In this document: positions 10,536-54,516 of the stretch, piece after piece
Numbering within the stretch: the first letter of the stretch is position 1
Layout: each line of letters starts with the position of its first letter
Origin: Gemmatales bacterium
GTDB taxonomy: Bacteria; Planctomycetota; Planctomycetia; Gemmatales; HRBIN36
Direction: 5' to 3'
Length of the DNA: 64,000 nt
NCBI GenBank assembly: GCA_041640595.1
Contig: JBEPZY010000003.1
Location: forward strand, 276,773 to 340,772
Translations under genes and position numbers: made by a program
Notes under the pieces: model-generated
The model's input: only the letters and a program-made list of their open reading frames with translations
What the model was told of the DNA's origin: nothing
Databases searched by the model: none

Positions 10536-10876
10536 CCACGGCGGGCTGACGCCCACCGCTCTTGGTCGTGCGTGCGTATGTGCAGCGTAAAAATCGTTTT
10601 TTCGCCGGCAGAGATGCGCGTTCCGCCACAAGAGCGGGGGGCGTTAGCCCCCCGTGGCGCCGATAAACGCGAATGCAACGGCAATCCGCACACACACCGT
10701 CGGCGGTCTGCCGACGAATAGCGGGCGTGTGTGCGGATGCGATTTTGCCGGCCCACGGCGGGCTGACGCCCGCCGCTCTTGTTCGGATGTGCGGATGTGC
10801 AGCGTAAAAATCGTTTTTTCGCCGGCAGAGATGCGCGTTCGACCGCAAGAGCGGGGGGCGTTAGCCCCCCGTGGTG
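10536..10876. repeat. REP-like palindrome cluster 1 (between convergent-side genes)
   Basis: Alternating-orientation copies of CCACGGCGGGCTGACGCCCGCCGCTCTTG and CAAGAGCGGGGGGCGTTAGCCCCCCGTGG with conserved linkers. Confidence 0.85.
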
Positions 10877-11044
10877 TTGCTCTACGCGATGGCAACCCTA
10901 AGGCGACCACAATGGCCTACTGATTTAGTAACGCGTTAGCCCCCCGTGGTGTTGCTCTACGCGATGGCAACGACGGGGTCTGCAAAGTTATCGTGGACCC
11001 CGACGGTCGTTAGCCCCCGTGGTGTCGCTCCACGCGATGGCAAC
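10860..11044 (+). CRISPR. CRISPR-like mini-array built from REP sequence: 3 repeats, 2 unique spacers
   Basis: Repeat GTTAGCCCCCCGTGGTGTTGCTCTACGCGATGGCAAC at 10860-10896 and 10935-10971 (identical) and 11009-11044 (one deletion, two substitutions); unrelated 38 and 37 bp spacers. No cas genes nearby. Confidence 0.55.
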
Positions 11045-11156
11045 GGCGGTCGGCACACGTACTCTCGGCGGTCTTCCGAGCGTTCGCGCTCGGGCCGGAT
11101 AGTACTTACGGGCGATCGTAGCAACCGCGAGGGGGTTTGCGAACCGGAGCAGAGCG

Positions 11157-12128
11157 TTACTCGGCGGGGAAGAGCGGTGTACTCAGATACCGTTCGCCGA
11201 GGTCGGGGATGATGACGACGATGACCTTACCTGCATTTTCCGGCCGATGGGCTACCTGTAAGGCCGCCCAGGTCGCCGCACCGGCACTGATCCCGCACAG
11301 GATACCTTCTTCCCGTGCCAGCCGACGCGACATCTCGAAGGCATCCTCATCCTGGACGGTGATAACCTCATCAATGATGTTGAGATTGAGCACATCGGGA
11401 ATGAAACCGGCACCGATACCCTGAATGCGATGTCGGCCGGGCTTGATCGGCTCACCGCGTAGCCGCTGGCTAATGACCGGGCTGGCGGCCGGCTCGACGG
11501 CAATGCAGCGGAAGGTGGGTTTGCGTTTCTTGATTACCTCGCCCACGCCGGTGATGGTTCCGCCTGTGCCCACGCCGCTGACCAGGATGTCGGCAGCGCC
11601 GCCGGTGTCGTTCCAGATTTCTTCGGCAGTGGTTCGGCGATGGATTTCCGGGTTGGCGGGGTTCTTGAACTGCTGCGGCATGTAGGCGTTGGGGGTTTTG
11701 GCCAGGATTTCCTCGGCTTTGGCAACCGCCCCACGCATCCCCTGATCGCCGGGCGTCAGGATGATTTCCGCACCGAATGCTTTGAGCAACCGCCGACGCT
11801 CGATGCTCATCGTTTCCGGCATGGTGACGATGAGCTTGTAGCCTTTGGCAGCGCAGGTGAACGCCAGAGCAATTCCCGTGTTGCCGCTGGTCGGTTCGAC
11901 AATCACGCTCTCGCCGGGTTTGATTTTCCCCTCGCGTTCTGCGGCTTCGATCATGGCCACGCCGATTCGATCCTTCACCGACCATAGCGGGTTGAAATTC
12001 TCCAGTTTCGCCAGCACGGTCGCTTTGGCGTCGCCGACCACGCGGCGGAGTTTGACCAGTGGCGTGTGGCCGATGGTTTCGGTAATGCTTTCATACACGC
12101 GACCACGAAACGGCAATGGATATTTCAT
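11157..12128 (-). CDS. cysK: Cysteine synthase A
   Basis: [44 protein letters not shown]. Confidence 0.97.
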
Positions 12129-12466
12129 CTCTCGTCCCTCACTGGCATGGCCGGCGTCCCTGGGCCTGGCTCAGTGAGCGGGTTCCAGAGCGTCGGCGCG
12201 GCCGGTCACCGGAACTGCATGCGGCAGCCGGATCAGCGGCGTTGACTCACTCTCCACCAGGTGAAATCCCGCGGCAAGAACATCAGTTCTGCTCGCCAGT
12301 GCCCTGGCGGTGTTCCCCTGCGATCGGCATTTTTAGAATATAGGCGGATTGCGGCGACGAATCCAGGTCAGTTTTGCTGGGGCCGTCTGCGCACGCACGG
12401 CCATCTTGTCTGCCCTTCCGCTTCAGCCGCGTTCCCTGCGATCAGCCGTGTTCCCAGCGATGGGTC

Positions 12467-16888: not shown

Positions 16889-17580
16889 GCCAGTCGTGTG
16901 AACGCCGTTGTGATGCGTTGGTGAGCCGCGGCGTTCCTGGGAAACATGCGTTTGTGCACCGCGAATCTCGTTATTTTTGAGTGAACAAACGACGTGCACC
17001 AGGAGCGGCTGGCGTGAGTCAGCCGTGGACAAAGTAACGCGCCCGTCCCTGAAAAGCGCATATCTGCAACCGCATCCGCACGTGCACCAGGAGCGGCTCG
17101 CGTAAGCCAGCCGTGGTTCAGGATAGTCGCACTGGCAGGGGACTGCGCCTTCCGACGATGACCGCGGGTCGCTTGTGTTCATCCGTCGCATCGTCGGCGA
17201 ACAGTACCGGATTTTCGCGGCACAGCGTTCGGTCTGTCGAGCCACGGCGGGCTGACGCCCGCCGCTCTTGCGAGTGGGCGTTCGCACATCGCAAAAATCG
17301 TTTTGTCGCTCGCAGACATCCGTACACCAACACAAGAGCGGGGGGGGTGTAAGCCCCCCGTGGTACCTATTTAACGCGAGTGCAACGGCGATCCGCACAA
17401 ACACCGTCGGCGGTCTGCCGAACAAGTGCGCTTGTGTCTGCGAGAACGTGTTTCCCACACGCACGGCGGGCTGACGCCCGCCGCTCTTGGTTGGACGCAC
17501 GCCTCCGCATCGCAAGTCGCACATCTCGCACCGAACAAACGCCGTGCACCAGGAGCGGCTGGCGTAAGTCAGCCGTGTTC
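16884..17580. repeat. REP-like palindrome cluster 2 (BIME-like mosaic)
   Basis: Copies near 16993, 17082, 17242, 17333, 17462 and 17544, plus a half copy overlapping the endonuclease stop. Confidence 0.85.
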
Positions 17581-18758: not shown

Positions 18759-18783
18759 ACAAGAGCGGCCAGGGAGGTAGTGC

Positions 18784-19194: not shown

Positions 19195-19259
19195 GCCAAG
19201 ACACGGGCCCCGGCGTGAACGGATCGGCAGCAGACCCGAATTCGGGCGGGAGGAGGAGC

Positions 19260-21207: not shown

Positions 21208-21835
21208 TGCCCGCCGCTCTTGGTTGCATGTGCGTCTCCGGGTCGCAAATCGCGCATGTTGCAGCCAACGAACGTCGTGCACCAGGAGCGGCTGGCGTGA
21301 GCCAGCCGTGGTAGAGGAAGCGTGCTGGTGGATGGACGACGCAGCTTTGCGCCGGCATTCGGGCATGCAAGGAGGAGCGGCTGGCGTAAGCCAGCCGTGG
21401 TTAGCGAGTCGCGTTTGCAAAAGCGAAACCGCGACTCGCCGGTTACGCCGACCGGTCGCTTCAACGAAACGCCGTTGCAAGTGCGTTACCGAACCACGGC
21501 GGGCCGACGCCCGCCGCTCTTGCGAATGGGCGTTCGCACATCGTAAAAATCGTTTTTTCGCTCGCGGACGTCCGTACACCAACACAAGAGCGGGGGGCGT
21601 CAGCCCCCCGTGGTACCTATATAACGCGAGTGCAAGGGCGATCCGCAGATACACCGTCGGCGGTCTGCCGAACAAGTGCGCTTGTGTCTGCGCGAACGTG
21701 TTTCCCACACGCACGGCGGGCTGACGTGCGGCGCTGTTGATTCTGTGTTGGCCAGTCGCCGAGCATTACGCGATTCTGACCGCAAGACGTTCGGTTCACC
21801 GAGCCACGGCGGGCTGACGCCCGCCGCTCTTGGTT
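21208..21835. repeat. REP-like palindrome cluster 3
   Basis: At least seven copies; 21494-21726 closely matches 17242-17476 including the linkers. Confidence 0.85.
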
Positions 21836-21992
21836 GCATGTGCGTCTGCCCATTGCATCATGCGCGTTTCCGTTGGACGCGGTCGTGATAATGCGCCTGG
21901 TCGCGGTGGTAATGGCGTGGATCGTGGTACCGCGGAATGGAGCTCCACGAGTCAGAGACGCAGTGCACACGGAGGGATGTGGTAATGGCGTG

Positions 21993-22104
21993 GGTCGCAA
22001 TGCCGCCAGATGGGGCGGTACAATGACAGCGTTCGGGCCGGCTGGCTGTCTCTGGCACACCAAGAAGGTCGCGATGCCGCCAGATGGGTCGGTACAATGA
22101 CAGC
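21993..22104 (+). repeat. 38-bp direct repeat flanking a unique 36-bp insert
   Basis: GGTCGC(A/G)ATGCCGCCAGATGGG(G/T)CGGTACAATGACAGC at 21993-22030 and 22067-22104. Confidence 0.85.
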
Positions 22105-22130
22105 AACGGGCGAGCACTGAGGGTAGCGGG

Positions 22131-23645
22131 ATGGCTATGTCGGCTGGTGTACAGACGCAGCAACGCTTACGCACCGCACTGCCGCTGGCGGTGACGTTGC
22201 CGTTGCCGCTTTCGCCATTCGAGGCGTTGCGGCGTGTGGCCCGACTACCGATGGCGATATTGCTGGAAAGTGCGCTGGCGGGTGGCGAATGTGGGCGATA
22301 TTCGTGGCTGAGTGCCGATCCGTTTGCCACGCTGCGAGTGCGCGGCCAGGAGTTATGGTGGCAGTATCGCGGGGCGAGTTACCGTGAGCATGGCCATCCC
22401 TGGCTGGCGTTGCGGCGGGTTCTGGCGACGATGCGACAATGGCCGCGACCGGATTTGCCGCCGTTTCCCGGTGGCGTGGCCGGCGTCTGGAATTATGAGC
22501 TGGCCCAGCATCTGGAGCGCTTGCCGCGAGCTGCCCAGGATGATTTCGCCCTGCCCGAACTGGTGGTCGGCTTTTACGATTGGGTCGCCGTCTGGGATCA
22601 TGCCAGCGGACAGAGCTGGCTGATCAGTACCGGCTGGCCGGAACACGATCCCGAACGCCGATACCGTCGCGCTCAACAACGGCTCGAACAGGTGCGGGCC
22701 TGGTTAGAGTGTGCCGAACCGCAGCCCCTCGAAGCTCGCCATCCCGTCCAGCAAGCCGACTCCGATCTGCGACTGGCCCCGCAATTTCCGTTGCCGCGAC
22801 TGGCCGATTTGGCCAGCAACTTCAGCCGCACCGCTTACTGCCAGGCTGTGCAACGGGCCATTGACTATGTGCATGCCGGCGATTGTTTTCAGGTGAACCT
22901 GGCGCAACGGCTTTTGTATCCGGCCCGGCTCAGTCCGCTGGAACTGTATGGGCGATTGCGGCAGGTCAATCCGGCTCCGTTTGCGGGCTATTTCGACGCC
23001 GGGGATTACGTACTTTGCAGTGCTTCGCCCGAACTGTTTCTGCGAGTGCAACCGGACGGCTGGGTGGAAACCCGCCCGATCAAGGGAACTCGTCCCCGCA
23101 GCGACGATCCTCAGCAGGATGAACAGCATCGCCTCGAATTGCTCGCCAGCGGCAAAGACCGTGCGGAAAATGTCATGATCGTGGACCTGCTCCGTAACGA
23201 TCTCGGTCGCGTTTGCCGCTACGCTACGGTGCAGGTGTCGGCGGTGTGTCAGCTGGAGACGTATCGCACGGTGCATCACCTGGTCAGTGTCGTGCGGGGT
23301 CAGTTGCGGCCGGAATGCGACGCTCTTGATCTGTTGCAGGCGACCTTTCCGGGGGGTTCGGTGACCGGTGCCCCGAAAATCCGCGCCATGCAGATCATTG
23401 CCGAACTCGAACCGACCGTTCGCGGGCCTTACTGCGGCTGTCTCGGCTACCTCGGTTTCGATGGCAGTGCCGAGTGGAACATCCTCATCCGCACCTGCAC
23501 GGTGGCGCGAGGCTGGGTGCAATTTCCCGTGGGTGGCGGTATCGTTGCCGACTCCCGGCCCGAACTCGAATACGAAGAGACTCTCCACAAGGCCGAGGGC
23601 ATTCTCCGCGCTCTCGAAGAACCTGCCTTGTCTCCGCGAGCCTGA
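22131..23645 (+). CDS. pabB: Aminodeoxychorismate synthase component I
   Basis: GDCFQVNL, SASPELF, TRPIKGT, KDRAENVMIVDLLRND, FPGGSVTGAPK, GGGIVADS; sits in a pterin cluster. Confidence 0.9.
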   Translation: MAMSAGVQTQQRLRTALPLAVTLPLPLSPFEALRRVARLPMAILLESALAGGECGRYSWLSADPFATLRVRGQELWWQYRGASYREHGHPWLALRRVLATMRQWPRPDLPPFPGGVAGVWNYELAQHLERLPRAAQDDFALPELVVGFYDWVAVWDHASGQSWLISTGWPEHDPERRYRRAQQRLEQVRAWLECAEPQPLEARHPVQQADSDLRLAPQFPLPRLADLASNFSRTAYCQAVQRAIDYVHAGDCFQVNLAQRLLYPARLSPLELYGRLRQVNPAPFAGYFDAGDYVLCSASPELFLRVQPDGWVETRPIKGTRPRSDDPQQDEQHRLELLASGKDRAENVMIVDLLRNDLGRVCRYATVQVSAVCQLETYRTVHHLVSVVRGQLRPECDALDLLQATFPGGSVTGAPKIRAMQIIAELEPTVRGPYCGCLGYLGFDGSAEWNILIRTCTVARGWVQFPVGGGIVADSRPELEYEETLHKAEGILRALEEPALSPRA

Positions 23646-41253: not shown

Positions 41254-42294
41254 TTACGGGAAGAAGCGTTCGAGCTGTACCAGTCCGGTGTTGCTGCCCA
41301 GGTCCACGAAAGTGTCCGCTCCGAGTCCGCCATCCGCAATCATGCCCAGCTGGAAGTCGTTGAAGGCGAACTCGAGGGAATCGTTGCCCTCGCCCAGGTC
41401 CAAGATGACGCGGGCGTTGAAGAAGTTGAAATCACGCAGTCGGACGAAGTCGGCTCCGCGTCCGGTACTGATGGTGGTCTCACCGGCGACCTGGGTGTTT
41501 CCGATAGTAACGGTGTCATTGTCGGCACTGAAGAATCCCGGCGGCTGGGCTGTATTGATGCGCAGGGAGAAATCGAACTGCCCGCGAGCAATTTGCACGA
41601 AGTCGCTGCCGGCACTGCCACTGATAAACGCCTGACCCCGGACTTCGAGCTGGTTGAGGATGATCATATCGCTGCCATCACCGAGGTCGGCAAAAAAGTC
41701 CCCGCCAACGACGCTGCTGAGGATGCGAACCTGGTCATTTTGCTGGGCGGTGGTGAACATCAACGAACCGCGAATGACAGTGTTCTGGATGGTGAGAATG
41801 TCAAATCCCTGCCCGGTCAGAATGGTGACGTTGCGGTCAAACTGGAGCGTTGTCGCCGGGGCCCGAAGCAAGACGGTGTCGTTCTGGTTGCCGGTGTCAA
41901 TGAAGAAGTGGTTGTGGGCAATGATGTCCTCGATCAGGACACTATCGTTGCCGGTACCGGTGTTGATGAAAACCGGGGCGTTGAAGACGACCAGCCCGCC
42001 GCCGGGCGAGATTTGCAGGACGTCGTCGCCGCCACGCAGGTCAATGCTGATTTTGCTGACGCCGCCGGTGATGATGGTGATGGTGCTGAGGTGGCCATTG
42101 ATTTGCGTGGAAGTGTCGCCCGGTCGGATGATCAAACTAAAGGGATTGGGTTGAACGATCTGGATGCGGTTGCCGGCGTTGTCACCGATGACATTGAGTA
42201 CGCCGCTGTTGACATTAACCATAACATTGCCAGCGGGAACAGAGCGGGATTCGAGAAATTCCAGATGAAGGCGTGTGGAAAGAGATTGCGGCAT
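41254..42294 (-). CDS. Planctomycete extracellular beta-solenoid protein, divergent third paralog
   Basis: 'LHLEFLESRSVP' leader, 'IDLRGGDD', TG.G.D repeats and C-terminal 'ADGG.G.DTF...NTGL'. Confidence 0.85.
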   Translation of the reverse strand: MPQSLSTRLHLEFLESRSVPAGNVMVNVNSGVLNVIGDNAGNRIQIVQPNPFSLIIRPGDTSTQINGHLSTITIITGGVSKISIDLRGGDDVLQISPGGGLVVFNAPVFINTGTGNDSVLIEDIIAHNHFFIDTGNQNDTVLLRAPATTLQFDRNVTILTGQGFDILTIQNTVIRGSLMFTTAQQNDQVRILSSVVGGDFFADLGDGSDMIILNQLEVRGQAFISGSAGSDFVQIARGQFDFSLRINTAQPPGFFSADNDTVTIGNTQVAGETTISTGRGADFVRLRDFNFFNARVILDLGEGNDSLEFAFNDFQLGMIADGGLGADTFVDLGSNTGLVQLERFFP

Positions 42295-42499
42295 GGGTGC
42301 AGCTTCTCCTGTTGCAGCGTCTATGGCGGTTCGGCCAAGCCGTGGACGATGACCTGGTTCTTAGAGCGCATGCAGGGTGCCCAGGCAGTCCGTTCCCGCA
42401 AGGGTGTCGGGGCACGGCTCCGAGCCGGGCGAGTCCCTGTTCGGCCCGATACCAAGCCGAATTGCACCCCGCACTCTTCCCGTCCTGGCGATGGCATTG

Positions 42500-42527
42500 A
42501 TGATAGCAAAAGCAAAAACCGTGTCAA
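42500..42527 (-). promoter_or_regulatory. Sigma70-like promoter upstream of the third beta-solenoid gene
   Basis: Minus strand TTGACA-16 nt-TATCAT. Confidence 0.6.
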
Positions 42528-42895
42528 GTGCAAAACACAAAAATTTTGCGGAGATAGCGCAAAATGCACAAACCGATGCAACCACCGGTTGTAAAACGGC
42601 TTGCGGTGAACGTTGCGAGAAGCCCTTATTGGGAAACGGCATAACCGCGAGAAAATATGTCTTTTGTTCGGGTCGGATCGGGTTGGCAATCGGCTGAAAA
42701 CTTCGAGTCTGCGAGTAAAAACAGCCAGAGGCAGGCGCAGCTGAATACAGCTGCGCAGCGGAACTGCGGACGGGATAATTTTTGGATGGGCTGGAAGGAT
42801 TCACCCGCCAGCGCAAAGGTCAACCGCAAGCAATCCGCGGGGTGAGACGAACAGGACGCGCTAATTTCGTAAAGGATGTAAAGCAGTGAAAACGG

Positions 42896-43957
42896 TTAGT
42901 TCAGCTGGATGTCGCGGAGTTGTTCCCGGAGATAACGTGCGCGAGCCAGGTTCCGCTGTTCGGACTCCATTTCCTCACCGTGGAGCTTTTGCAGGTGGGC
43001 AGGCTGAGTGTGCAGGAGTAACTCATTGACCCGCTGCAGGCTCAGGTCGTCAATCAGCTGCAGAGCGACTCCCAGCCGGACGTTGGAGAGTAAGTCCAGG
43101 GTCTCCTCGGAACTCATCATGACGGCCGAGCGAAGTGTGCCCAGAGCGCGATGAATGCGGTCCTGCATCACGGAACGCATCTCGCGTAACAGAGCCCGGC
43201 GAGCCTGCCGCTCGTACTTGACAATCGCCGGCACCGTCTCGCGGATGGCCTGGAGGATGTCCTGCTCACTGCGGCCGAGTGTAACCTGATTGGAAATCTG
43301 GTAAAAGTCGCCGCTGGCCCGTGTGCCTTCACCATACAGTCCACGCACAACCAGGTTCATCTTCTGCAGAGCGCGGAAGACTTTTTCCAGTTGTTTGGTC
43401 AATCCGAGGGCGGGCAAATGCAAAAGCACGCTGGCCCGCATACCCGTACCGACATTGGTCGGGCAGGCAGTCAGGTAACCGAATTCATCGCTGAAAGCGT
43501 AGCAGACGCGCTCACCCAGTGCGTCATCGAGTCGGTCCATCTCCTGCCAGGCTTCGTCAAGCTGGAAACCGGAGCGGATGACCTGAAGGCGGAGATGGTC
43601 TTCCTCGTTGACCATAATGGCGGCGGCTTCGGTTTCGCCGATGGCTACACCGCGGTGACCGTTGGCGTTGGCATGTTCCCGGCTGATGAGCTGGCGTTCC
43701 ACCAGAAACTGGCGGTCGAGCTCAGGGAGCTTGTGAACCGCGAAGTAGGTGAACTGCCAGACGGGATCAAGCTGCTGGATACGTTCGCGGAGCAGGCTTT
43801 CGATCTCGCCTCGCTGTAATGGGCTGGCGCGATTGGGGAAAGGATAATCGGCGAGATTGCGCGCCAGGCGAATCCGCGTGGAAACAACAATATCCGCCTC
43901 GGGGCCGACTCCCCGTAACCATTCTCCGGTACGCAGCAAAAGGTCGTTGAGAGTCAT
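42896..43957 (-). CDS. mcsB: Protein arginine kinase McsB
   Basis: STRIRLARN, LVERQLIS, NEEDHLR, GYLTACPTNVGTGMRAS, RGLYGEG, QISNQVTLG. Confidence 0.96.
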   Translation of the reverse strand: MTLNDLLLRTGEWLRGVGPEADIVVSTRIRLARNLADYPFPNRASPLQRGEIESLLRERIQQLDPVWQFTYFAVHKLPELDRQFLVERQLISREHANANGHRGVAIGETEAAAIMVNEEDHLRLQVIRSGFQLDEAWQEMDRLDDALGERVCYAFSDEFGYLTACPTNVGTGMRASVLLHLPALGLTKQLEKVFRALQKMNLVVRGLYGEGTRASGDFYQISNQVTLGRSEQDILQAIRETVPAIVKYERQARRALLREMRSVMQDRIHRALGTLRSAVMMSSEETLDLLSNVRLGVALQLIDDLSLQRVNELLLHTQPAHLQKLHGEEMESEQRNLARARYLREQLRDIQLN

Positions 43958-44445
43958 TGTTGGAATCCGTGGCGACGTAACCAGTCCCGCAAATGTGCAG
44001 CGCGTTCGTAATCTTCGTCCAGCACGGCCTGGTTCAGTTGCTGGCGAGCGGTGAGGACCTGGCAAAGCCGTTCCTGGTCTTCCGGACGTCTGGTGGGCAC
44101 CTTGCCGCGATGGCTCGTCCGTCGGTGCAGCCGTTCCAGCAACGGGAGCAATCCCTTGCGGAAGGCCAGGTAATCGTAGGGGCAACCGAGCCGGCCCTGG
44201 TGGCGAAATTCCATAAAGCCTATGCCACAGGCCGGGCATCGCAGCCGCGCCAGTTCCTCCACGATCGGCCCGACATGGGCTCCCAGTAAAGTCTGCACGA
44301 TGGCGGGCAAGTGAAGCTGCTTTTTCTTGAGCACCTGCATTTTTTCCGCACAGGCCGGGCACAGGTGGAGTTCTTTCTTGACCCCGCCCGGCTCGACGTT
44401 GGTCAGGTGCACGGTAGCAGTTTGCTCACAGTAAAAGCATTTCAT
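43954..44445 (-). CDS. mcsA: McsA-like activator (CxxC + UVR domain), paralog 1
   Basis: C..C, HLC..CA, CP.CG, GRLGC..DY, H.GK.P and EDYERAA.LRD. Confidence 0.88.
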   Translation of the reverse strand: MKCFYCEQTATVHLTNVEPGGVKKELHLCPACAEKMQVLKKKQLHLPAIVQTLLGAHVGPIVEELARLRCPACGIGFMEFRHQGRLGCPYDYLAFRKGLLPLLERLHRRTSHRGKVPTRRPEDQERLCQVLTARQQLNQAVLDEDYERAAHLRDWLRRHGFQQ

Positions 44446-44581
44446 GCCAGGATCGCCTGTCGGCAGGCACAGCAGCCAGGCCCGAAAACCACCGGGCTGA
44501 TGCCCGACATTTCCTGTATTCGAGGCAGACCGTAAAGGCCCCAGAGCCCAATCGGGGCCAGACCGACGCCAGCCGGTGCGG

Positions 44582-45058
44582 TTAGCCTCCCAGTTCGCGG
44601 ATACGGTCGCGCAAGCGAGCGGCTTCTTCGTAGCGTTCGGCGTTGATGAGTTCCTGAAGTTCGCGGCGCAATCGAGCAATTTCTTGCCGGAGTTGTCGGG
44701 CTTTGTCTTGCCGGGCCGGCATCTTGCCGGTGTGTTTCAGGTCGCCGTGGATGCTCTCCAGAAGCGGTTGCAATTGTTCGCGAAAATGCTCGTAATCGCT
44801 GGGGCAGCCCAGCCGGCCGGTGTTGCGGAAATCTTTCAGCGTTATGCCACACTCCGGGCAGCGCACCTGTTCCCATACTTCGAGCAATTGCCCTTCGACG
44901 CTGGAGCTAAAACCAGCCGGCATCTGCGTGCCAGGGATCGGCTGGGCAAGATATTCCTGGCCGTGCTCCTCACACAGGTGCACTTCCTCGATCCGGCCCT
45001 GATCGAGTATCTCCGTGATGTGAAACACCGCCCGTTTGTTACAGCGATCACATTTCAT
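44582..45058 (-). CDS. mcsA: McsA-like activator, paralog 2
   Basis: CDRC, HLCEEH, CPECG, GRLGCPSDY, HTGKMP and ERYEEAARLRD. Confidence 0.9.
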   Translation of the reverse strand: MKCDRCNKRAVFHITEILDQGRIEEVHLCEEHGQEYLAQPIPGTQMPAGFSSSVEGQLLEVWEQVRCPECGITLKDFRNTGRLGCPSDYEHFREQLQPLLESIHGDLKHTGKMPARQDKARQLRQEIARLRRELQELINAERYEEAARLRDRIRELGG

Positions 45059-45127
45059 GGCTGACTGCCGCCAATGCTGTTGAGAACCGCCATCGCCCGT
45101 TGGGCTTGATTCAGGCCGTCCGTTGGC

Positions 45128-45155
45128 ATTGTAACAGCCATCGGCTGCCTGTCAA
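45128..45155 (-). promoter_or_regulatory. Sigma70-like promoter of the mcsA-mcsA-mcsB unit
   Basis: Minus strand TTGACA-16 nt-TACAAT. Confidence 0.65.
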
Positions 45156-45178
45156 GCAAACCCGCCAGACCAGGACGT

Positions 45179-45418
45179 TCACGGTGGATCATACCCGCCC
45201 GGCGACCAGGGATGGCAGCGTAAAATCCGCCAGCTCCCTTTCAAGACGCCCCGCCACACCCCGTATTTGCGAACCGCCAGCACCATGTATTCACTGCAAC
45301 TGGGCTGAAACCGACAGCACGGCCCAAACAGCAACAGCAGCACCGGCCGCAACGTCCACCGGTAGGCATACACCAGGCCCACCACGATCATTTCCCCCAG
45401 GCGGCTCAGCCACGCCAT
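45179..45418 (-). CDS. yidD: Membrane protein insertion efficiency factor
   Basis: [10 protein letters not shown]...A...YG...G...[13 protein letters not shown]. Confidence 0.93.
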
Positions 45419-46068
45419 GAATTCTCCACCCTCGCAAATCGAACCGGCCCACCGATAACCGGCACCTCTGTCGCTCCGCCACAAGGATTCTACGCCGCCG
45501 ATGCCCGAACCATGTTCGATCGGCACATTGCTAACGTTGGGCTATTTTGATGGAATGCGTGTTCCCCGTTCTTCCAAACGAACCATGCTTGACCTGCACA
45601 TCTCAATGTCTGGGCTAAAGGGCGCCCACGCAAATGCGTGTTCTTCCAAGCGAGCCATGTCCGATCGGCACATGGTTGCCGTGTGGATGACGGTTATTTT
45701 CGCCGGCTCGACGTCCGGAAAGGCCGGACCGCAAGCGCGATCATCCCCACACAGGATCGCCACCACATCTGGGAATTTGCGAGTAGCCCAGTGTGGTCGT
45801 ATCGCCGGGTTGCAATCTCACCGATTCGCTGCGCGTCTGGGGAGCTGCCAGCAGCCTGTTGTGATCGCGTGGTCAGGTTTCCATCCGATCTGATCGGCGC
45901 CGCGTCTGGTGCTGGGCAAAACGCCATTACTATCAGCACGCAGGTTCCATCCGACTGATCGGCGCGGTGTCTGGGAATCTGGCAATGCCCGGCTACAATG
46001 GCAGCAGTGATGGCTCCGATAGCAGGAGCGGATTGGCCGCGAGGGTCTGGCATTCCAAGGAGTAAGCC

Positions 46069-47019
46069 ATGCGACTATGCCGTTATCAGCACGCCGGCCG
46101 GGTTCGTGTGGGTCTGTACAGCGAGCAAGGTGTGGTGGACCTGCAAACAGCGGCGGAGCATTGCGGTCTGAAACTTCGCGTGGAGACGGACGATCTGCTG
46201 ACCTGGCTGCCACCGGAAGGCCCTGGCTTCGCCACCGCCGCAACCGTTGCCGCAGAGTGGGCCAAACTGCCTCCCAACCAGCAGGAGCGTCTTCGCCTGC
46301 CGCTGCGGGAAATCAAACTCCTGGTACCCGTGCCACGCCCGAATAAAGTGATCCTGCTGGCGGGCAACTACGCCGAACATGTCGTCGAAGGCGGCGGTCA
46401 GGCTCCCGAACGACGCGACACCTTCCCATACTTCTTCTGGAAACCGCCCAGCACGACGCTGATTGCCACCGGTGAGCCGATCCTGCTGCCCAAAGTTTCT
46501 CCCGACCATGTGGACTGGGAAATCGAGTTAGGCGTGGTGATCGGCAAGCGGTGTCGGCATGTCTCCGAATCGGAAGCGCTGGCATACGTGGCCGGCTACA
46601 CGATTTGCAATGATGTTTCCGACCGACGGTTCCGCCTCAATCCCCAGCGCAAACCACGCGAGAAGGATAGCTTTTTCGACTGGCTGCACGGCAAGTGGCA
46701 CGATACGTTTCTGCCGTGTGGGCCGTGCATTCGCTCTGCCCATGTTACGCCCGACCCGCAAAAATTACGCCTGCGTCTGCGTGTCAATGGCCAGACCATG
46801 CAGGACGCCTGCACCGGTCAGATGATTTTTCCGGTCGCGTCGCTGATTGCCACTTTGTCCAGTTTCATGACACTGGAGCCGGGCGACATCATATCTACCG
46901 GCACGCCGGCCGGTGTCGGTGCTGCTCGCAAACCCCCGGTATTTCTGCGAGCCGGCGACATCGTCGAATGCGAAATCGAAGGCATCGGCCTGCTGCGCAA
47001 CTCCGTCTCCCGCGAATAA
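46069..47019 (+). CDS. Fumarylacetoacetate hydrolase family protein
   Basis: GNYAEH, DWEIELGVVIG, NDVS.R, GK..DTF.P.GP and PGDII.TGTP.GVG. Confidence 0.93.
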   Translation: MRLCRYQHAGRVRVGLYSEQGVVDLQTAAEHCGLKLRVETDDLLTWLPPEGPGFATAATVAAEWAKLPPNQQERLRLPLREIKLLVPVPRPNKVILLAGNYAEHVVEGGGQAPERRDTFPYFFWKPPSTTLIATGEPILLPKVSPDHVDWEIELGVVIGKRCRHVSESEALAYVAGYTICNDVSDRRFRLNPQRKPREKDSFFDWLHGKWHDTFLPCGPCIRSAHVTPDPQKLRLRLRVNGQTMQDACTGQMIFPVASLIATLSSFMTLEPGDIISTGTPAGVGAARKPPVFLRAGDIVECEIEGIGLLRNSVSRE

Positions 47020-47091
47020 CGGCCACCACGCCGCGACAACCGCCTGACAACCAGGACCGGCCGGCGTAAGCCCGCTGCGGTTGGACTGTTT

Positions 47092-50000
47092 CTACATCTC
47101 TACTGGTGCAGTGAGTTTGCACTTCTTCAGGTCAACACGCCATGTCCGGGTTTCGAGAGCGTCATCAGGAATTGTGTCATACCGCGTGATACGGACTCGG
47201 CTGGGATCCCTCTCTGCCAGGTGCTCAACGTTCCAAAGTTCCCAGCGGTATTCTTGCTGACCTAAATACTCCTTATACTCCGGTTGCGTGAGTTCCACGA
47301 TTGTTGCGCGACCGCTATGCGCCTTGACTTCAACACGAAGTTCCTGGCCGTTCTTCGTTGCTCGAAGGTCAAAACCGGGATTCTCTAGGGGCATTTCCTC
47401 GACTTGATAGCCCATTTTCTCCAGTTGGCGCTTCACAATGATTCTGCCCGCCTTTTCCAACTCGGCCTTGTCTGCATCCGTCAGCGAACGGCCTCCCGAC
47501 CACGTTCCCACCGCTCCAGTACCGCCACCACCGATGTCGGCGCTTTCGCCGTGTGGGCTGACAAAATCATAGTTAGTCTTGGTTGGATCTTTCAGACGCA
47601 GTGGTTGCTCATCTCTCTCCTGTGGTTCCGCTTCTGAACGGCTCTCCACCGAAGTGTCGCCCGCTTGCCTTATGGAGGCTTGTTCCCGGTAATGCCCCTG
47701 GGTGTCGTCACCCACAGGCGTTTGTGACGTCCCGCTCTCTTGCTGGCCCTCTATCTGCGTCTGGGGACTCTCATCTTGTTCCTCCTGATCGGACTGTCGT
47801 GAGTACTCACGGAGGCACTTGTCTATTTCGGCATCCGCCATACCTTCACTCAGAAGCTTCTCTTTTCGCTGACGGTCATCAGCACAGCGAAGAAGATTCT
47901 CGTAGAAATCCGCCTCTTTCCGTACATCAAGTGCTTTCGTCAGCGCCCGCGCCAACTCAGCCTCGTTCTGGCGGTCTTTATGCAGGTAGATTGTGTCGCC
48001 CTCAACGTGCCAGCGTCGTTCGACCTCGTGATGCACGCCAGCCAAAGACAGCCTCGCTTTCAGGGTGGGCACGACCAGCACCTTCAAACGCTTCAGGCGA
48101 GCTGATAACCGTTCGGCGCTCTCCTGCTTGATCTCCGAGGACCTCCAGGCATACACATAAGGCAAAGACCTCGTGAACTTATCTTTCAGGTCGCCTGACA
48201 ACTGCGACTGCGGTTCCCCTGGTATGACATCCACGTTGACAGACTGCAATAGAGACAGAACACCGAAGTATTTCACGGCATCAGAGTGCAGTCGCGCAGG
48301 GATATGAAAGAGCCAGACGTCCTCAGCAAATGCTGTCGCAAGGCCGTTATCATCGTTCAGGTATCTTGGTTCGTTAGATACGTATTTCCAGTCGTTGCCC
48401 TTTCGGCAAAGGAGGGGGCAAGATTTGAAATCCTCATCTTTGATGTCCTCCTTTTCTGCTACAGTCTCCAGGCACGCCTCATACCATTTCATGACTTTGT
48501 ACCGAAGCTCTTCGTCAGACGCAAGGCGTTCGGCAGGGGCCTTACCGGGGATGCGCGTGGACAGGAGTTGCTTCCATTCTTCTACAGTCAGTTGTTCCAT
48601 TCGCGTGCGAAGGCCGACGGCACTGACAAGCCAGTCGCGGACAACCTCCTTGTCGTCTCCGAAAGCCTCAAGGTTAACGACGGGCAGAAGATCCCCTATG
48701 GCGCGTTCGGTTCGCCCATCGGGCAGCCAGCAATCAATAAGGGCTGCCGATGCTGACCCGCTTCTCGTCCTCGGTCGAACCATGTATAAGATTTGGAACC
48801 ACCAGAATGCACGAACAGACTGTTCCCGGTGGTAGTAGTAGAACCATGTCACTTTCGCTTGGGATCGCACCTTGTAGTAATCATCCCAGTGCTTTGCAAG
48901 CAACGTGAGTAAGGCGCAGACTTGAGTGTCGTTGAGCTTTTCAATAGTGACGGCTTCAAGACGACCAACGGCGTCCACGGTCGGGGTGCGCCAGCCTGTG
49001 TCTGGGAAAGTCTTTCGCCATCCACCGCACTCGACGGGCAATTGGTTCGCAGGAATTCCGTTTCCGTTGGACCCACAATTTTTTACGACACGCGGATAAG
49101 CGGCGCACCCGAGCCATTCGAGAACTGGGAGCTCTCTTTCCGCATCGCCGCTTATGCACTGCACCCAAGCAATGCCATCTTGGCCTTCATATAGCGCCTC
49201 AACTAGGTCGTTGTTCCATTCGATCCCGAAATAAGCCTTCTCAGCCTCGGCCCAAGTTCCACCTCTGACGGGCACGGGACACCGCCTCAGCTCTGCGGAA
49301 GGGAGCGTCGTCTCGTGCCAATCTTGCTGCAGGATGAAACGCAGGAATTGCCCCGGGTCGCCCTGTTTGTCCTTCCAGTACTGGTCAATCGCTTTGCCAA
49401 CGGCGCGCTGGACAACATCTGCGCCCGGTTCTTTGATCTCCAACTCCTCGCTCACTCTCTTGACCGTGGACTTTTCCTTGGCCTCCTTTTGGATGCGATC
49501 GCGGAACCAGTCGTCCACGAAGGTCAGCGGCAACCAATCGGGCAGGTTCCCCACCCCAGCATTCGGTTTCCAGGTCACGATACGCCCTGCAAGGTCTGAA
49601 ACCTTCAACAAACTGCCATCAATAGGCACTATGGGCAGCGCTTTCACGCTCTCGATTCGCTTCCGGTGTTCCTCGCTGTAAGGCGGCTTGCTGGCTACCC
49701 AATCCGCAAGCCATTCCCAGCAAGCCCACACCAAACCTGGGTTGGTGGCGAGTGAAACCGCGTTTTGAGCGATGACCTCCATCAGGTCTCGATCGTGGAT
49801 CTCCTTACAATCCAACGCCCTGAGTGCGTTCCGTGCTTCTTGGTCCGTGTCGAACGAACAATGCAACAATTGCCCTCCAAAGCTCGTAGCTTCGAGCAAG
49901 GTGCGCGCCAGGTCATGGCGGACGGTGACCGAAATTAATCTCGCCTCGCCAAGAGTCAGGCGCTGCTGACCTTCGATGTCTGCGAGTCGCAGGTCTGTCT

Positions 50001-51180
50001 TTGCCTTTTCAGCTATGCGTTGCCAGAGGGCATTGGCGACGGGATGAGACTCTCTGTCCTGGAAAGGTACAAGCAGGGCGGCATGACTGCTCGGCGCTTT
50101 TGTGTCGTAAGAGTCATTCACAAACTTGCAGACATGGTCGGCGAGTCTGTCGGCAACCCACGCGTTGAAGCGATTGCTTTCTATCGGTATGACGGCAGTA
50201 CGGTCGCTTTTAACAAGGAACTCGGCGTGAAGGAGCAGACGCACAGGACCTATTTGCTCTGTCGGATAGAAAACGTGAACGGGAAGGTAATCCTCCGTAG
50301 GTTTGACACAATCGTTTTCAAGCGGAGCAGCAATAATGAAACTGACCCCATCCTCAGAGACGGCTCGCCGCTCATTTGGCCCCAAAAGCTTCAGCAGGTC
50401 CTCGGGAGGGTGCTCTGTATGTTTTGCGACACGCCACCCGACTGGGGTCTGTCCCCGGCTGTCGCGCAGCAACCAAGTACCTTGCTCGCGGTTCCGGATA
50501 ACCTCTACCTCTAGTCCTGGAGCAGTGATTTTCCGAAGATGGCGGAAGGCAAAGAGCGCGTGAGGTGGCCAGTTCTTCAGCAGTTGTTCCACCTCCGTTA
50601 TCTTTTCCGGAGAAAGGCCGGGCAGCTTGACAACCGTTTTGAAGCCCTTCGCCTTGAAATCGTCAAGATGAGGGTCTTGTGCTCGGGCATCACTCCACGC
50701 GATGAAAAACGGAATCCATTGGTAGGGCACGTGTTCCCCGCCCAGGTCGTTGTCTTGCAGCCACCGCACGCTTTTGTCAGGACTGAACTCTATGCCCTCG
50801 CCGTCCACGGTAAGCACCTGGGGATTCCGGGAGACCTCGTACACCGATTTGAATCCTACGCCTTTGCGGCCGATCGCGCCCCCAGTCTTGTCTGAGAAAT
50901 CAGTGCCGCAAATAGCGCCCACGGATTCGGGTTTGAAGCCTTGACCGTTGTCGGCCACATAGACAGCGTCGTTCTTGACCGAAACAAGAACCTCCGTGGC
51001 CTGTGCATCATCGCTATTTTGCAACAGCTCGAAGAGCCATCGCCCCGTGTGGTCGCCCGTGGCGCGCTCTGCGGCCCGCGCGTCGCGAACTATCCGCTCT
51101 GGGTCGGCTTTGTAGACTTTTAAGGTTTTCTTCTTGTATTGTTCAATAGCTGCTTCTAAATGGCCTTTTTTCTTGTGCAT
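47092..51180 (-). CDS. Sacsin-like GHKL ATPase with C-terminal DUF3883 (NO VEIN-type) nuclease-like domain
   Basis: ELLQNSDDA, DNG.GF, IGRKGVGFKSV; C-terminal 'E..G......L...GY......NPGFDL......VEVKA...ELT..EY'; lower GC than flanks. Confidence 0.85.
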   Translation of the reverse strand: MHKKKGHLEAAIEQYKKKTLKVYKADPERIVRDARAAERATGDHTGRWLFELLQNSDDAQATEVLVSVKNDAVYVADNGQGFKPESVGAICGTDFSDKTGGAIGRKGVGFKSVYEVSRNPQVLTVDGEGIEFSPDKSVRWLQDNDLGGEHVPYQWIPFFIAWSDARAQDPHLDDFKAKGFKTVVKLPGLSPEKITEVEQLLKNWPPHALFAFRHLRKITAPGLEVEVIRNREQGTWLLRDSRGQTPVGWRVAKHTEHPPEDLLKLLGPNERRAVSEDGVSFIIAAPLENDCVKPTEDYLPVHVFYPTEQIGPVRLLLHAEFLVKSDRTAVIPIESNRFNAWVADRLADHVCKFVNDSYDTKAPSSHAALLVPFQDRESHPVANALWQRIAEKAKTDLRLADIEGQQRLTLGEARLISVTVRHDLARTLLEATSFGGQLLHCSFDTDQEARNALRALDCKEIHDRDLMEVIAQNAVSLATNPGLVWACWEWLADWVASKPPYSEEHRKRIESVKALPIVPIDGSLLKVSDLAGRIVTWKPNAGVGNLPDWLPLTFVDDWFRDRIQKEAKEKSTVKRVSEELEIKEPGADVVQRAVGKAIDQYWKDKQGDPGQFLRFILQQDWHETTLPSAELRRCPVPVRGGTWAEAEKAYFGIEWNNDLVEALYEGQDGIAWVQCISGDAERELPVLEWLGCAAYPRVVKNCGSNGNGIPANQLPVECGGWRKTFPDTGWRTPTVDAVGRLEAVTIEKLNDTQVCALLTLLAKHWDDYYKVRSQAKVTWFYYYHREQSVRAFWWFQILYMVRPRTRSGSASAALIDCWLPDGRTERAIGDLLPVVNLEAFGDDKEVVRDWLVSAVGLRTRMEQLTVEEWKQLLSTRIPGKAPAERLASDEELRYKVMKWYEACLETVAEKEDIKDEDFKSCPLLCRKGNDWKYVSNEPRYLNDDNGLATAFAEDVWLFHIPARLHSDAVKYFGVLSLLQSVNVDVIPGEPQSQLSGDLKDKFTRSLPYVYAWRSSEIKQESAERLSARLKRLKVLVVPTLKARLSLAGVHHEVERRWHVEGDTIYLHKDRQNEAELARALTKALDVRKEADFYENLLRCADDRQRKEKLLSEGMADAEIDKCLREYSRQSDQEEQDESPQTQIEGQQESGTSQTPVGDDTQGHYREQASIRQAGDTSVESRSEAEPQERDEQPLRLKDPTKTNYDFVSPHGESADIGGGGTGAVGTWSGGRSLTDADKAELEKAGRIIVKRQLEKMGYQVEEMPLENPGFDLRATKNGQELRVEVKAHSGRATIVELTQPEYKEYLGQQEYRWELWNVEHLAERDPSRVRITRYDTIPDDALETRTWRVDLKKCKLTAPVEM

Positions 51181-51662
51181 AAGTGCTTATTGTATGGTCT
51201 CCACCTAACACCTGTGCCCATTTCCATTGGCATAATACGCTTCGGCGGATGAAGTGCTAAGTTCTTCGGTTTCGCCGTGCCTCCTATGTCTTCAAGCATG
51301 GTCGCCATGTTTGGTGGTTTCCATCTAACCTGCGTAGTGCACAACGCATCGCCCGGACTTTACCTTTAGCGTAGGGTAACCTCCAGGTTCACTCGTTAGC
51401 CAGAAACCACTTTGCCACCTCAACGGATCGTCTGAGTCACATTCGAGAATTGGCTGTGCGAGTCTATCACTGGTTAGCTAACAGGCGTTTCGCCACCTCG
51501 ACTCACCCTCGACCTCCCCCGCCCCGGAAGTTTCTGCCTTTTTCGAGAACGTGCTCAGAAAACCTGCTACTCATCCTCGACTTCACTGTTCCCTCGCCGC
51601 TGCTTGGTTGCCAGTCGGCCGTCACGGTGCGGCAACGTTCACCCTTGCCGGTGCGTATCGAA

Positions 51663-51865
51663 CCCACGGCGGGCTAACGCCGCCTGCTCTTTGGTGGCGT
51701 TACTTGCCGAACAGAAATCGAATCGTTCCGCAAATGCGTCTTCCACACCCACGGCGGGCTGACACCCGCCGCTCTTGGTGCGTGTGCGACTCGGCATTGC
51801 AAGACGCGATTTCCCGGCGAACGAACGTCGTGCACCAGGAGCGGCTCGCGTAAGCCGACCGTGGC
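51663..51865. repeat. REP-like palindrome cluster
   Basis: Copies near 51664, 51749 and 51830. Confidence 0.8.
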
Positions 51866-52063
51866 GCGCGAGCGTTCTCCTTCGACGAAAACCTCGCCGA
51901 AAAACGCTCGCCATCGCCGATGCGTTTCCCCCACGGCGGGTGTCCGTGTGCACGGGCGCGTGGCGAATCAGTAGAATAAGCCCTGCGAAAAGCAGGAATA
52001 GCGACCGGGCCGAGTTCCGCTACTTGTGGCGAATCAGTAGAATAATCGCTGCCCCGCTGCTTG

Positions 52064-52160
52064 GTGCTAATCGAACCAACGTGGGATTGAAAACTTACTC
52101 AGGAAGTGAAGGCACGTGTTCGGGCGATGCGTGCTAATTGAACCAACGTGGGATTGAAAA
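52064..52160 (+). CRISPR. Orphan CRISPR mini-array: two 30-bp repeats, one 37-bp spacer
   Basis: GTGCTAAT(C/T)GAACCAACGTGGGATTGAAAA at 52064-52093 and 52131-52160; the ATTGAAA(N) 3' end is typical of CRISPR repeats. Confidence 0.8.
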
Positions 52161-52329
52161 GTAGAATCAGTAGAATAAGCGCTGCCCCGCTGCCCGGCTG
52201 AAGACAAACGGGCAAGCTTTTCCTGCCGCTATCACGGAACAAAGCGTTCGAACCGAGAGGAAAAGCCAGATCGGCCGAGAGTTGCAGCAAGTGACCGCTG
52301 GGACTTTTGCTTGAACAAAGGGGGAAACC

Positions 52330-53745
52330 ATGCGAGTGTTTGCTGCAGCAATTGCGACGTGCCTGATGTTTGGGCTAACAGCCCCGTTCGCCGCCGAGCC
52401 CGAGGACTGGTACTACCACGACGGGCCGTTGGCCGGCTCGCTCAAGAGTGACAAGCCGTTGCCACTCTACGACAAAGACCCAAACCATCTTTGGAACCGA
52501 CTGTTCGCTGTTCTTTACATTCGGCCCGGCGAGAATCCCCCGCCTGGCCAAGCCCGGCGCATTGAAGGAGGCGACGCCTATCTCGATCCGCTGCTGTGGC
52601 CCGAGACGCCACGCTTCACCGCCGACCGCGCTGTCCTGGAGAAGACGATTCGGCTGCTCGACGAGTTCCTGGAACAGAAAGGAGCCGACCTCATCACTGA
52701 CCCGCTCAAGCGGGCGATCTTCCAGCATGACCTGTGGGTCGTGTACGACCGAGTAGCGCGGCAGCGGCCGCGAACGGGCCTGGCGACACTGCACGGCGAG
52801 ATGCTCCGGAAAATGGCCCAAGTAATCCGGGCAGTCGCCCTCTCCAAAGAGGAGATCGCCGCCCTCCCCGACAATTACGCGCTGGCCCTGAAGTCGGGGC
52901 ATTTCGCCGCCGAACATGGATTCGATCCCAGGATCGACTATCTACCCGCTGATTTGCCAACGGGGCCGGGCAATTCCACCACCGGCGACTGGGTGGAGAT
53001 CACCTATCCGGCCCACGTGCCACCGTATCACACCCACGACTTCGGCGGCCGCTCCTACTTCCGCATCTTCTGCCGCTTCCCCGCGGGTCGGCAGGCAGTG
53101 CTCGACTACCTGAAGTATGTGGCCGAAGAAGGCGTTGACCAGAACCATCCCGATGCAGCCAGGAGGGCGGTGCTCAAGAGCAAAGGTCTGCGGCAAATCC
53201 CCGCCGGCACCCAACTCGCCCTGCTCCGCCAGATGGTGGTGCTCGACAAGAACCTGGAACCGGTGCCGACATCCATCGTGCAAGAGCTTCGCATGCGCAT
53301 CTTCAAGAACGTCGAGGGGAAGGAAGATCCCGCTACCACTTCCGGGGAGGGCGTCAACATCTACTCTTACGAATTGAAGCGAGCCCTGGCGTTCGACGGC
53401 CTGCGCAAAGGCGGCCTGGAACGACAGCCGAACAACCTCAAAGTATATCGGCCGCTCTTCCACTTCAACGAGGACTGGGGACGGGCCAAGGGGCGCGAGG
53501 GTCTGGCATTTCTGCCCGTGGCGACCCACTGCATCGCCTGCCACGGTCACAAACCGGGCGGCAATGTCGGTGTTTACAGCATCCATTCCATTCACGCCGC
53601 CTTCAGCCTCGCCGGGGCCACTCGCAATGGCCCGCCAGGTATCGCCACGCCGATGACGAAGGAGGCGCCAACCCAGGCCCAGCGTGCAGAAAAAATAATT
53701 CTCTCGCGTCCGGAATATCGGCAGCTGGTGGAGTGGAGTCGCTAG
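52330..53745 (+). CDS. Secreted hypothetical protein with a single CxxCH (possible c-type cytochrome)
   Basis: Signal peptide; CIACH near the C-terminus. Confidence 0.75.
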   Translation: MRVFAAAIATCLMFGLTAPFAAEPEDWYYHDGPLAGSLKSDKPLPLYDKDPNHLWNRLFAVLYIRPGENPPPGQARRIEGGDAYLDPLLWPETPRFTADRAVLEKTIRLLDEFLEQKGADLITDPLKRAIFQHDLWVVYDRVARQRPRTGLATLHGEMLRKMAQVIRAVALSKEEIAALPDNYALALKSGHFAAEHGFDPRIDYLPADLPTGPGNSTTGDWVEITYPAHVPPYHTHDFGGRSYFRIFCRFPAGRQAVLDYLKYVAEEGVDQNHPDAARRAVLKSKGLRQIPAGTQLALLRQMVVLDKNLEPVPTSIVQELRMRIFKNVEGKEDPATTSGEGVNIYSYELKRALAFDGLRKGGLERQPNNLKVYRPLFHFNEDWGRAKGREGLAFLPVATHCIACHGHKPGGNVGVYSIHSIHAAFSLAGATRNGPPGIATPMTKEAPTQAQRAEKIILSRPEYRQLVEWSR

Positions 53746-53824
53746 ACGTGAGGCACGCTTGCAACCCAGGCCACACCGAACCAATGGCTGAAGCTGAGGG
53801 ATCGCCATCTTGGCTTTCCTCGCT

Positions 53825-54250
53825 TCAACGTTGCTGCAGGCAGGCCCGCCCACGCACCAGCGTGGCCAGCATCAGCGTGCGGAACGACCGCACCTTCGTC
53901 CAGTCCATGCTCGCCACCAGTGGACGCTTCTTCCAGTACCGCCGCTGGCGGACGAGCCAACGCAGCGGCCCCTGCATGGCCTCGGAAATGTGGATGCGTT
54001 CGTTGCTGGTGAATCGCCGGGCTCGCTTGATGCAATGTTTGGCGGTCTTGCAGGTGCTGGCAGCCAGACGGCGACTCAGCTCGGCCAAGCTTACCGATTG
54101 GATTGGCAGGACTGCCGTGACCCAACCCACTAGCGTTTTCTTCTGGCCGATGATTTCAGCCAGCTAGGTAGCCAGACCAGTAACGCTGCCGGAACTAAGT
54201 CGGCCAGCGTTTTCACCTAGCTTTTTCTCAGTGCGACGTATACACTGGTG
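53825..54250 (-). pseudogene. IS4-family transposase remnant (N-terminal part)
   Basis: 'KTLADLV..AL', 'SLAELSRRL...AKHCIKRARRF..N..I' and 'LVASMDWT...TLML...RGRA' resemble IS4/IS10-type DDE transposases; disrupted and truncated after the first Asp. Confidence 0.7.
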
Positions 54251-54404
54251 ATTCAGCAAACGACTTCCGTGAATTTCCTGGCGGTTCCCTCCGTAGGTTC
54301 TGGTGGTAGCGGGCGACCTTTCCTAAACATGTACGAACCCAGGACTTCGTAGGCACCGCCATTTTTCCCGCACCCCCGACAGAACTGTGGATGAGTCAGG
54401 GAGA

Positions 54405-54516
54405 GTGCTGGTGGTTCGGAGATTGGCAGCTTAGCTTGCGGCACCACAAGACAGAAGATACGCAACTATTTTCTCAAGGTGCTGGTGGTTCGAAGATTGT
54501 CAGCTTAGCTTGCGGC
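54405..54516 (+). repeat. 38-bp direct repeat (includes the lon stop codon) flanking a unique 36-bp insert
   Basis: 54405-54442 vs 54479-54516, 2 mismatches. Confidence 0.85.

Follow-up and report, generated by a model that had tools for sequence, protein, structure and literature searches.

Spacer integration outside CRISPR arrays is already known, mainly from forced expression in E. coli and from work in vitro. The type I-E Cas1-Cas2 complex of E. coli carries out non-canonical integration that gives rise to neo-CRISPR loci (Nivala, Shipman and Church 2018, as related in the available text of bioRxiv 10.1101/148544 and PMC6698737). As far as the available text of the preprint goes, Cas1-Cas2 was artificially raised in that study, the natural cases were circumstantial and came from two other species, and it was unclear whether off-target integration is common in nature (bioRxiv 10.1101/148544). 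Isolated or orphan arrays have been ascribed in part to off-target acquisition (Shmakov et al. 2020, according to the available text of PMC13142298). In the excerpted text of PMC6698737, the plasmid off-target sites of Pyrococcus furiosus Cas1-Cas2 in vitro have features in common with the repeat, and a G1A-C30T mutant is among the repeats tested; in that of PMC7999890, Streptococcus thermophilus arrays undergo ectopic spacer acquisition away from the leader-proximal repeat. Here we analyzed a window of 64,000 nucleotides (contig C3, positions 276773-340772) from the 4.45 Mb, 42-contig genome of a hot-spring planctomycete of the Gemmatales; the window, whole or in part, occurs in 20 metagenome runs from 15 studies, 10 of which contain at least half of its words, and the runs that contain it are mostly labelled as hot-spring or microbial-mat samples. 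Scattered sites in this window, each a short stretch of DNA duplicated around an insert, belong to a genome-wide population that very probably consists of scars left when the two Cas1-Cas2 adaptation modules of the genome integrated spacers off-target, a reading that we draw from sequence. The literature that we searched for such reports held no description of a natural genome with many such scars, and it is the scale that is new. What is remarkable here is this scale, the presence of two integrases, one of them linked to a reverse transcriptase, and a nested locus in which one event appears to have been built upon another.

The sites resemble the E. coli neo-CRISPR loci in combining a spacer-sized insert, a repeat-length duplication, a non-CRISPR location and a resident adaptation module. 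They differ in amounting to some 160-220 fixed natural scars in one genome, with two modules (type I-B and reverse-transcriptase-linked), and in including second insertions, amplification and a nested event. Like the isolated arrays of Shmakov et al., they are mini-arrays far from cas genes that point to misplaced integration. That survey reportedly dealt with integration into repeat-resembling sequences; here, the targets are barely repeat-like and the density per genome stands out. Judged by the available description, the P. furiosus system also has a 30-bp repeat, and its G1A-C30T mutant parallels the G-first, C-last preference described below. The S. thermophilus acquisitions, as excerpted, concern genuine repeats inside a genuine array, unlike our events, which lie outside arrays.

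All contigs were scanned for direct repeats of at least 24 bp enclosing at least 15 unique bases, with the large arrays left out, and event boundaries were later redrawn by the best-scoring segment. Outside the arrays, periods 65, 66, 67 and 68 hold 14, 38, 31 and 11 pairs (94 in total), and periods 72 to 76 hold 29, 38, 43, 40 and 10 pairs (160 in total). The remaining period values between 30 and 125 have 0-7 pairs each, save for a class at 87-96 (188 pairs) that has a different origin. The genome-wide period test proposed in an initial annotation of the window thus gave two sharp peaks rather than a flat distribution, and contig C3, with 129 pairs, gave 0 when permuted within 200-bp blocks. 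The lengths of the duplications follow the same division: 28-31 bp in 58 of 97 events of the 65-68 class and 36-39 bp in 55 of 122 events of the 72-76 class, where pairs from the arrays peak at 30 and 37. The 82 pairs found at 64 other period values combined show no preferred length. A canonical set of 162 isolated events (78 in the 65-68 class and 84 in the 72-76 class) occupies 146 loci, 135 of them single, 9 double, one triple and one sextuple through tandem amplification. The duplicated sequences of this set make up 143 clusters, of which 130 are singletons.

An origin in ordinary slippage or tandem duplication, or in periodic repeats that code for protein, would explain a minority of the loose counts only, and as a general account is very unlikely. 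Some period-72 pairs do lie in leucine-rich-repeat coding sequence, whole-period tandems exist (as at 37008-37233), and the window has protein repeats at periods 126 and 273. Slippage, however, would copy the whole period, leaving no unique insert and no preferred period. The commonest periods are 66, 67, 73, 74 and 75, four of which are not multiples of three, and long open frames hold only 26-30% of events. Whole-period tandem repeats are themselves enriched genome-wide, at 15 loci with periods 65-68 and 41 loci with periods 72-76, which fits later amplification of repeat-spacer units. At G000:C8:39323-40091, six 74-period units with two alternating inserts form a 148-bp unit repeated ~5 times, with a related copy at C1:329495-329593; this looks like a two-spacer scar amplified in tandem.

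The two peaks correspond to the genome's two CRISPR arrays, each with its own adaptation module:

C8:2-21080, continuing at the end of C10: array A, 344 copies of a 30-bp repeat, with 342 spacers of 35-40 bp (mode 36).
Module at array A: Cas2, Cas1b (425 bits against a cut-off of 304), Cas4, Cas3, Cas5 and Cas7, which are of type I-B; a Cmr (type III-B) set comes next.
C1:359749-377935: array B, 247 copies of a 37-bp repeat, with 246 spacers of 33-40 bp (mode 37).
Module at array B: Cas2, a protein of 101 aa, a reverse transcriptase of 550 aa that is group-II-intron-like, and Cas1; no effector genes adjoin it.

The genome contains two matches to Cas1 and two to Cas2, one pair adjoining each array, all full-length and without stops. 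The initial annotation had postulated two adaptation machineries integrating off-target and had suggested comparing the peaks with real CRISPR dimensions. Both period and duplicated length match the two arrays, and isolated events and arrays show no significant difference in period (chi-square p 0.10 for the first class and 0.09 for the second). The two modules, the two peaks and their agreement in dimensions support that proposal.

The six sites listed in the initial annotation were all found in the sequence, and one further tandem is added here:

10860-10896, 10935-10971 and 11009-11044, unstranded: a 37-bp unit in three copies, the third of 36 bp and diverged.
21993-22030 and 22067-22104, unstranded: 37-bp-class event, 38-bp copies identical at 36 of 38 positions, period 74.
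30395-30501, unstranded: event of 37-bp-class size, 36-bp copies identical at 30 of 36 positions, 35-bp insert, period 71.
37008-37233, unstranded: tandem of 3.4 copies of a 66-bp unit, the whole unit 81% conserved, absent from the initial annotation.
51960-51986 and 52026-52052, unstranded: 30-bp-class event, copies identical at 25 of 27 positions, period 66.
52064-52093 (R1) and 52131-52160 (R2), plus strand: 30-bp copies identical at 29 of 30 positions, 37-bp insert, period 67.
54405-54442 and 54479-54516, unstranded: 37-bp-class event, 38-bp copies identical at 36 of 38 positions, period 74.

Their periods agree with those first given for 10860 (75 and 74), 21993 (74), 30395 (71) and 54405 (74). 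A second class placed at 66-67 holds with 67 for 52064 and with 66, not 67, for 51960. The description of the duplicated units as ordinary local DNA is borne out by a hairpin loop, a promoter-like segment and a gene end, and fails for 52064, where the unit is a 26/30 variant of a CRISPR repeat.

The unit at 10860 starts in the loop of a hairpin resembling repetitive extragenic palindromic (REP) elements and continues into the linker, downstream of a PALP-enzyme gene (11157-12128, minus strand). Its two inserts (10897-10934, 38 bp, and 10972-11008, 37 bp) are mutually unrelated and set the start-to-start periods of 75 and 74. Two paralogues with the unit in single copy, at C4:~323790 and C2:~165745, represent empty sites. 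Repeats 1 and 2 are identical, with common derived changes, and repeat 3 is nearest to the paralogues, so that the upstream insert is the younger and was added to the hairpin-adjacent copy. The locus thereby suggests two successive 37-bp-class events, the second an insertion into one copy left by the first. At 21993 the insert is 36 bp (22031-22066), and the duplicated unit is a promoter-like stretch (TACAAT) that lies 27 bp upstream of the gene for anthranilate synthase component I (22131-23645), whose best protein relatives are from Planctomycetota at 50-60% identity. The 54405 insert is likewise 36 bp (54443-54478). There the second copy extends over the final 12 bases of the gene for the Lon protease (54505-56877, minus strand), and the target takes in the Lon stop codon and last three codons together with downstream DNA. 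The site at 30395 was absent from the seed-based scan and reached a score of 24 in a diagonal scan, in which 1.2% of random 80-bp windows here score at least 20; a period of 71 is given by 3 of the 246 spacers in the 37-bp array. It is an older, diverged event of 37-bp-class size. The tandem at 37008-37233 probably arose when unequal recombination amplified a repeat-spacer unit of 30+36.

A contig of run X3 (22.9 kb), one of the four public metagenome runs whose contigs were compared with window 40000-56500, follows the window up to 53797 and resumes at 54478, with ~4.2 kb of other sequence in place of 680 bp (53798-54477). The breakpoint on the right falls at the left edge of the second copy at 54405.

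Repeats that the resident processing and effector proteins recognise would carry the ATTGAAAC end, which is common to both array repeats; the repeat of array A has the termini GT...AC. The duplicated units, 52064 apart, do not fit this and are local DNA. The ATTGAAAC end is on no duplicated unit except 52064, and within five mismatches of the type I-B repeat, the 52064 copies are the only ones outside the arrays; for the 37-bp repeat there are none. These observations make it still less likely that the sites are remnants of many true CRISPR arrays, horizontally acquired or decayed, each down to two repeats. Isolated and orphan arrays are common in prokaryotes, according to the available text of PMC13142298, and the 52064 unit truly is a CRISPR repeat variant. 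A remnant origin, however, would need ~140 different repeats, all of exactly two lengths and, 52064 excepted, all without the ATTGAAAC end. The "repeats" are instead local DNA (a gene end, a promoter, a hairpin loop) with single-copy paralogues, and the 52064 variant, sought in 20 relatives, viral contigs and metagenomes, was found at its own locus only. On the leader side of array A (G000:C8:21350-21700), five copies of a CCCCAATAACGATGGCCCC-like motif lie upstream of the leader, and two period-66 pairs were scored among them; these copies are possibly a run of off-target events beside the true leader.

The targets of off-target integration have a simple signature at their ends. Those of the 30-bp class begin with G in 39 of 67 cases and end with C in 34 of 67, and in the 37-bp class the corresponding counts are 32 and 34 of 67, against a background of 0.29; the enrichment has p values of 1e-6 to 1e-3 across both classes. 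Taken for each strand separately, the preference is for a G at the attacked strand's 5' end, like the GT...AC of repeat A. Open frames of at least 200 aa contain 26% and 30% of events in the two classes, in comparison with 81% of random segments. This deficit fits selection against genic insertions, or a preference for intergenic DNA, and suggests that integration may act as a mutagen on the chromosome. Event density tracks a dispersed hairpin family, with 30 of 162 events within 300 bp of a hairpin versus 3.6% of random sites.

The initial annotation had raised the possibility that the inserts are ancestral sequence kept in relatives. They are derived: 11 of the 162 events have a paralogous empty site, with one copy of the unit and no insert, that aligns through the restored junction at 75-94% identity; the 10860 unit has its two single-copy paralogues; and one site is empty in the window and occupied in a strain:

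54343-54373, unstranded: empty in the window; a contig of run X2 (depth 9.66) repeats 31 bases around 36 others, period 67.

The first base of this segment is G and its last bases are AC. Empty sites were also sought in sister species with the query 21500-22600, where coding sequence of the same genus is 70-75% identical and intergenic sequence does not align, making the comparison uninformative either way.

A few inserts appear to come from the same pool of invaders as the array spacers. In array A, 31 spacers, mostly from the cas-proximal end, match contig C15 (locus L055, 9585 bp), and among 33 hit rows to it, 27 have CC at -3/-2 and 30 lie on one strand. This contig has a GC content of 0.50 and is gene-dense, encoding mostly unknown proteins, a matrixin-like peptidase and a weak hit, below the cut-off, to protein-primed DNA polymerase; it probably represents a virus or linear plasmid with which the lineage is currently infected. 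The 52094-52130 spacer matches C15 at 34 of 37 positions, where CCG lies directly upstream. Another isolated insert, which occurs at two paralogous sites, agrees with C15 at 30 of 36 positions, and a further one is similar to array spacer A131 (31/36). For three isolated inserts, protospacers exist at other places in the chromosome. The source of the 37-bp-class inserts was not found, and in array B itself 1 of 246 spacers matches the assembly outside the arrays. The proposal that these sites are a record of past invaders is supported for a few inserts only (two matching C15, one resembling an array spacer).

The inserts had also been described as unique, and this holds for almost all of them: they form 155 clusters, 150 of them singletons, which speaks against a mobile-element family. 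The least probable explanation of all, an unrecognised transposon or miniature inverted-repeat transposable element family of ~36-bp elements with long target-site duplications of 30 or 37 bp, shares the transposition layout of a target duplication around an insert and can appeal both to Cas1, which is itself a relative of transposases, and to the 922-copy hairpin family as a sign that this genome tolerates small dispersed elements, but is largely refuted by inserts that are mutually unrelated (150/162 singletons) where one family with conserved ends is expected. Two size classes whose equality to the two arrays would be a coincidence, and inserts that match the invader contig and an array spacer, also count against it.

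Off-target spacer integration would proceed as follows. A prespacer-loaded Cas1-Cas2 complex would attack both strands of ordinary DNA at points spaced by its own ruler, 30 bp for the type I-B module (Cas1b, Cas2, Cas4) and 37 bp for the reverse-transcriptase-linked Cas1-Cas2. Repair of the gaps would duplicate the stretch between the attacks, leaving a spacer between two target copies at a period of 65-68 or 72-76. Little beyond a 5'-terminal G on each attacked strand may be needed in a target, and survivors would be mostly intergenic because genic insertions are lost. Secondary changes may follow, among them a second insertion into one copy (10860), tandem amplification (37008) and the reuse of a repeat-bearing insert (52031-52193).

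Several observations weigh against this interpretation. The targets scarcely resemble the cognate repeats and show a marginal excess only, with mean matches of 11.96 versus 11.35 for random sites in one class and 14.39 versus 13.81 in the other (p ~0.01 each); matches to the other system's repeat show no excess. In this the sites depart from the P. furiosus plasmid assay in vitro, as far as its available description goes, and the record here is chromosomal and evolutionary. Loose counts are inflated by period-72 and period-75 pairs that are protein-coding repeats, such as leucine-rich repeats. Most events are old, with median copy-to-copy identities of 0.93 and 0.915 and 10 identical pairs among 162. 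Their density is very uneven, from 73 per Mb on contig C2 to 0 in 256 kb of C6. Of two relatives sampled, one in the same genus (G002, 224 kb) has an array with a closely similar 37-bp repeat and yet contains 0 isolated events, where ~12 would be expected at the mean density of the present genome. The other, in the same family (G006, 400 kb), has two pairs at periods 60-80, one in a 24-bp tandem repeat and one a weak 24-bp pair. Their near-absence from both samples makes the phenomenon lineage-specific. A shared protospacer-adjacent motif (PAM) had also been anticipated among the inserts. With boundaries set to the 30-bp ruler, CCN is exactly adjacent in 2 of the 5 inserts with protospacers, CCC is displaced by 2 nt in another 2, and 1 has neither; a strict common PAM is therefore rejected, and the agreement is suggestive only. 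Finally, the attribution of the scars to the two Cas1-Cas2 enzymes is inferred from genome comparison.

The most intricate of the sites in the window is the nested locus around the 52064 pair:

52031-52193, plus strand: target X at 52031-52060, TTG, R1 at 52064-52093, a 37-bp spacer at 52094-52130, R2 at 52131-52160, GTA, and X again at 52164-52193.

The target X is 30 bp long, and its two copies, 29/30 identical, flank the block from TTG to GTA. R is a variant of the repeat in the type I-B array, with which it agrees at 26 of 30 positions. TTG, R and GTA together make 36 bp, the modal spacer length of array A, and the distance from X to X, 133, equals 30+36+67. In our reading, a 36-bp spacer consisting of a whole CRISPR repeat with 3 nt on each side seems first to have been pasted off-target at X, duplicating 30 bp, and the pasted repeat would then have served as a regular target for a spacer against a C15-like element. 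The 51960 target, of period 66, overlaps X and lies 5 bp further upstream; it may mark a third event. Alternatively, a single 103-bp fragment may have been inserted with a 30-bp duplication, which would still imply the same integrase and would require a prespacer of abnormal length. Within three mismatches, the R variant was not found in 20 relatives or in viral contigs, and its sole metagenome match is the same locus in a near-identical strain. A 98.5%-identical strain (run X3) carries the whole locus (51960-52195) without change, and a public metagenome contig has the same structure.

Directly upstream, contigs of runs X2 and X5 skip 4.85 kb of the window (47084-51934), joining 47083 to 51935, and depth over this segment falls in X2, X5 and X8 and not in X3. 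One gene in the segment (47092-51180, minus strand) encodes a protein of 1362 aa that has both HATPase_c_3/sacsin-like and NO VEIN C-terminal domains; a cluster of hairpin repeats lies there too. It is a strain-variable island that ends 25 bp before the nested locus.

The pairs at periods 87-96 were considered as spacer scars and rejected, because their unit belongs to a family of dispersed repeats, unlike the unique duplications of local sequence. This unit is a GC-rich hairpin with 922 genome copies within five mismatches, often paired at periods 87-96 and belonging to larger units that are themselves dispersed (window 21500-21850 has 189 matches). The genome, which is 95% complete, yielded no Y1 (RAYT-type) transposase. 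In the window the family is found as follows:

16992-17116, 21284-21401, 39165-39475, 41090-41210 and 51660-51940: copies of the hairpin family.

A 67-bp skip in run X3 (41120-41188) and many joints within 41208-51749 fall between hairpin copies and are uninformative on spacer integration. Window 24690-26521 contains tandem arrays of periods 126 (6.7 copies) and 273 (3.1 copies), which, as multiples of three, are presumably protein-coding repeats unrelated to the scars. Rfam gave zero family matches across the whole window.

Some 160-220 natural events made by two integrases would constitute a data set on the target requirements of spacer integration, would allow an estimate of the mutational cost of CRISPR adaptation, and open the question of how new arrays arise. 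Since the events duplicate promoters and gene ends, as at the anthranilate synthase and Lon genes, integration may also be a source of regulatory variation. It is tempting, if rather doubtful at present, to go further and see in off-target integration a route for the birth and spread of CRISPR arrays, and in the 37-bp scars the first natural chromosome-wide record of a reverse-transcriptase-linked integrase. If this is true, the 37-bp-class scars possibly include RNA-derived sequence, and a single misplaced, repeat-bearing spacer at 52031-52193 would have seeded a new mini-array with proper repeats.

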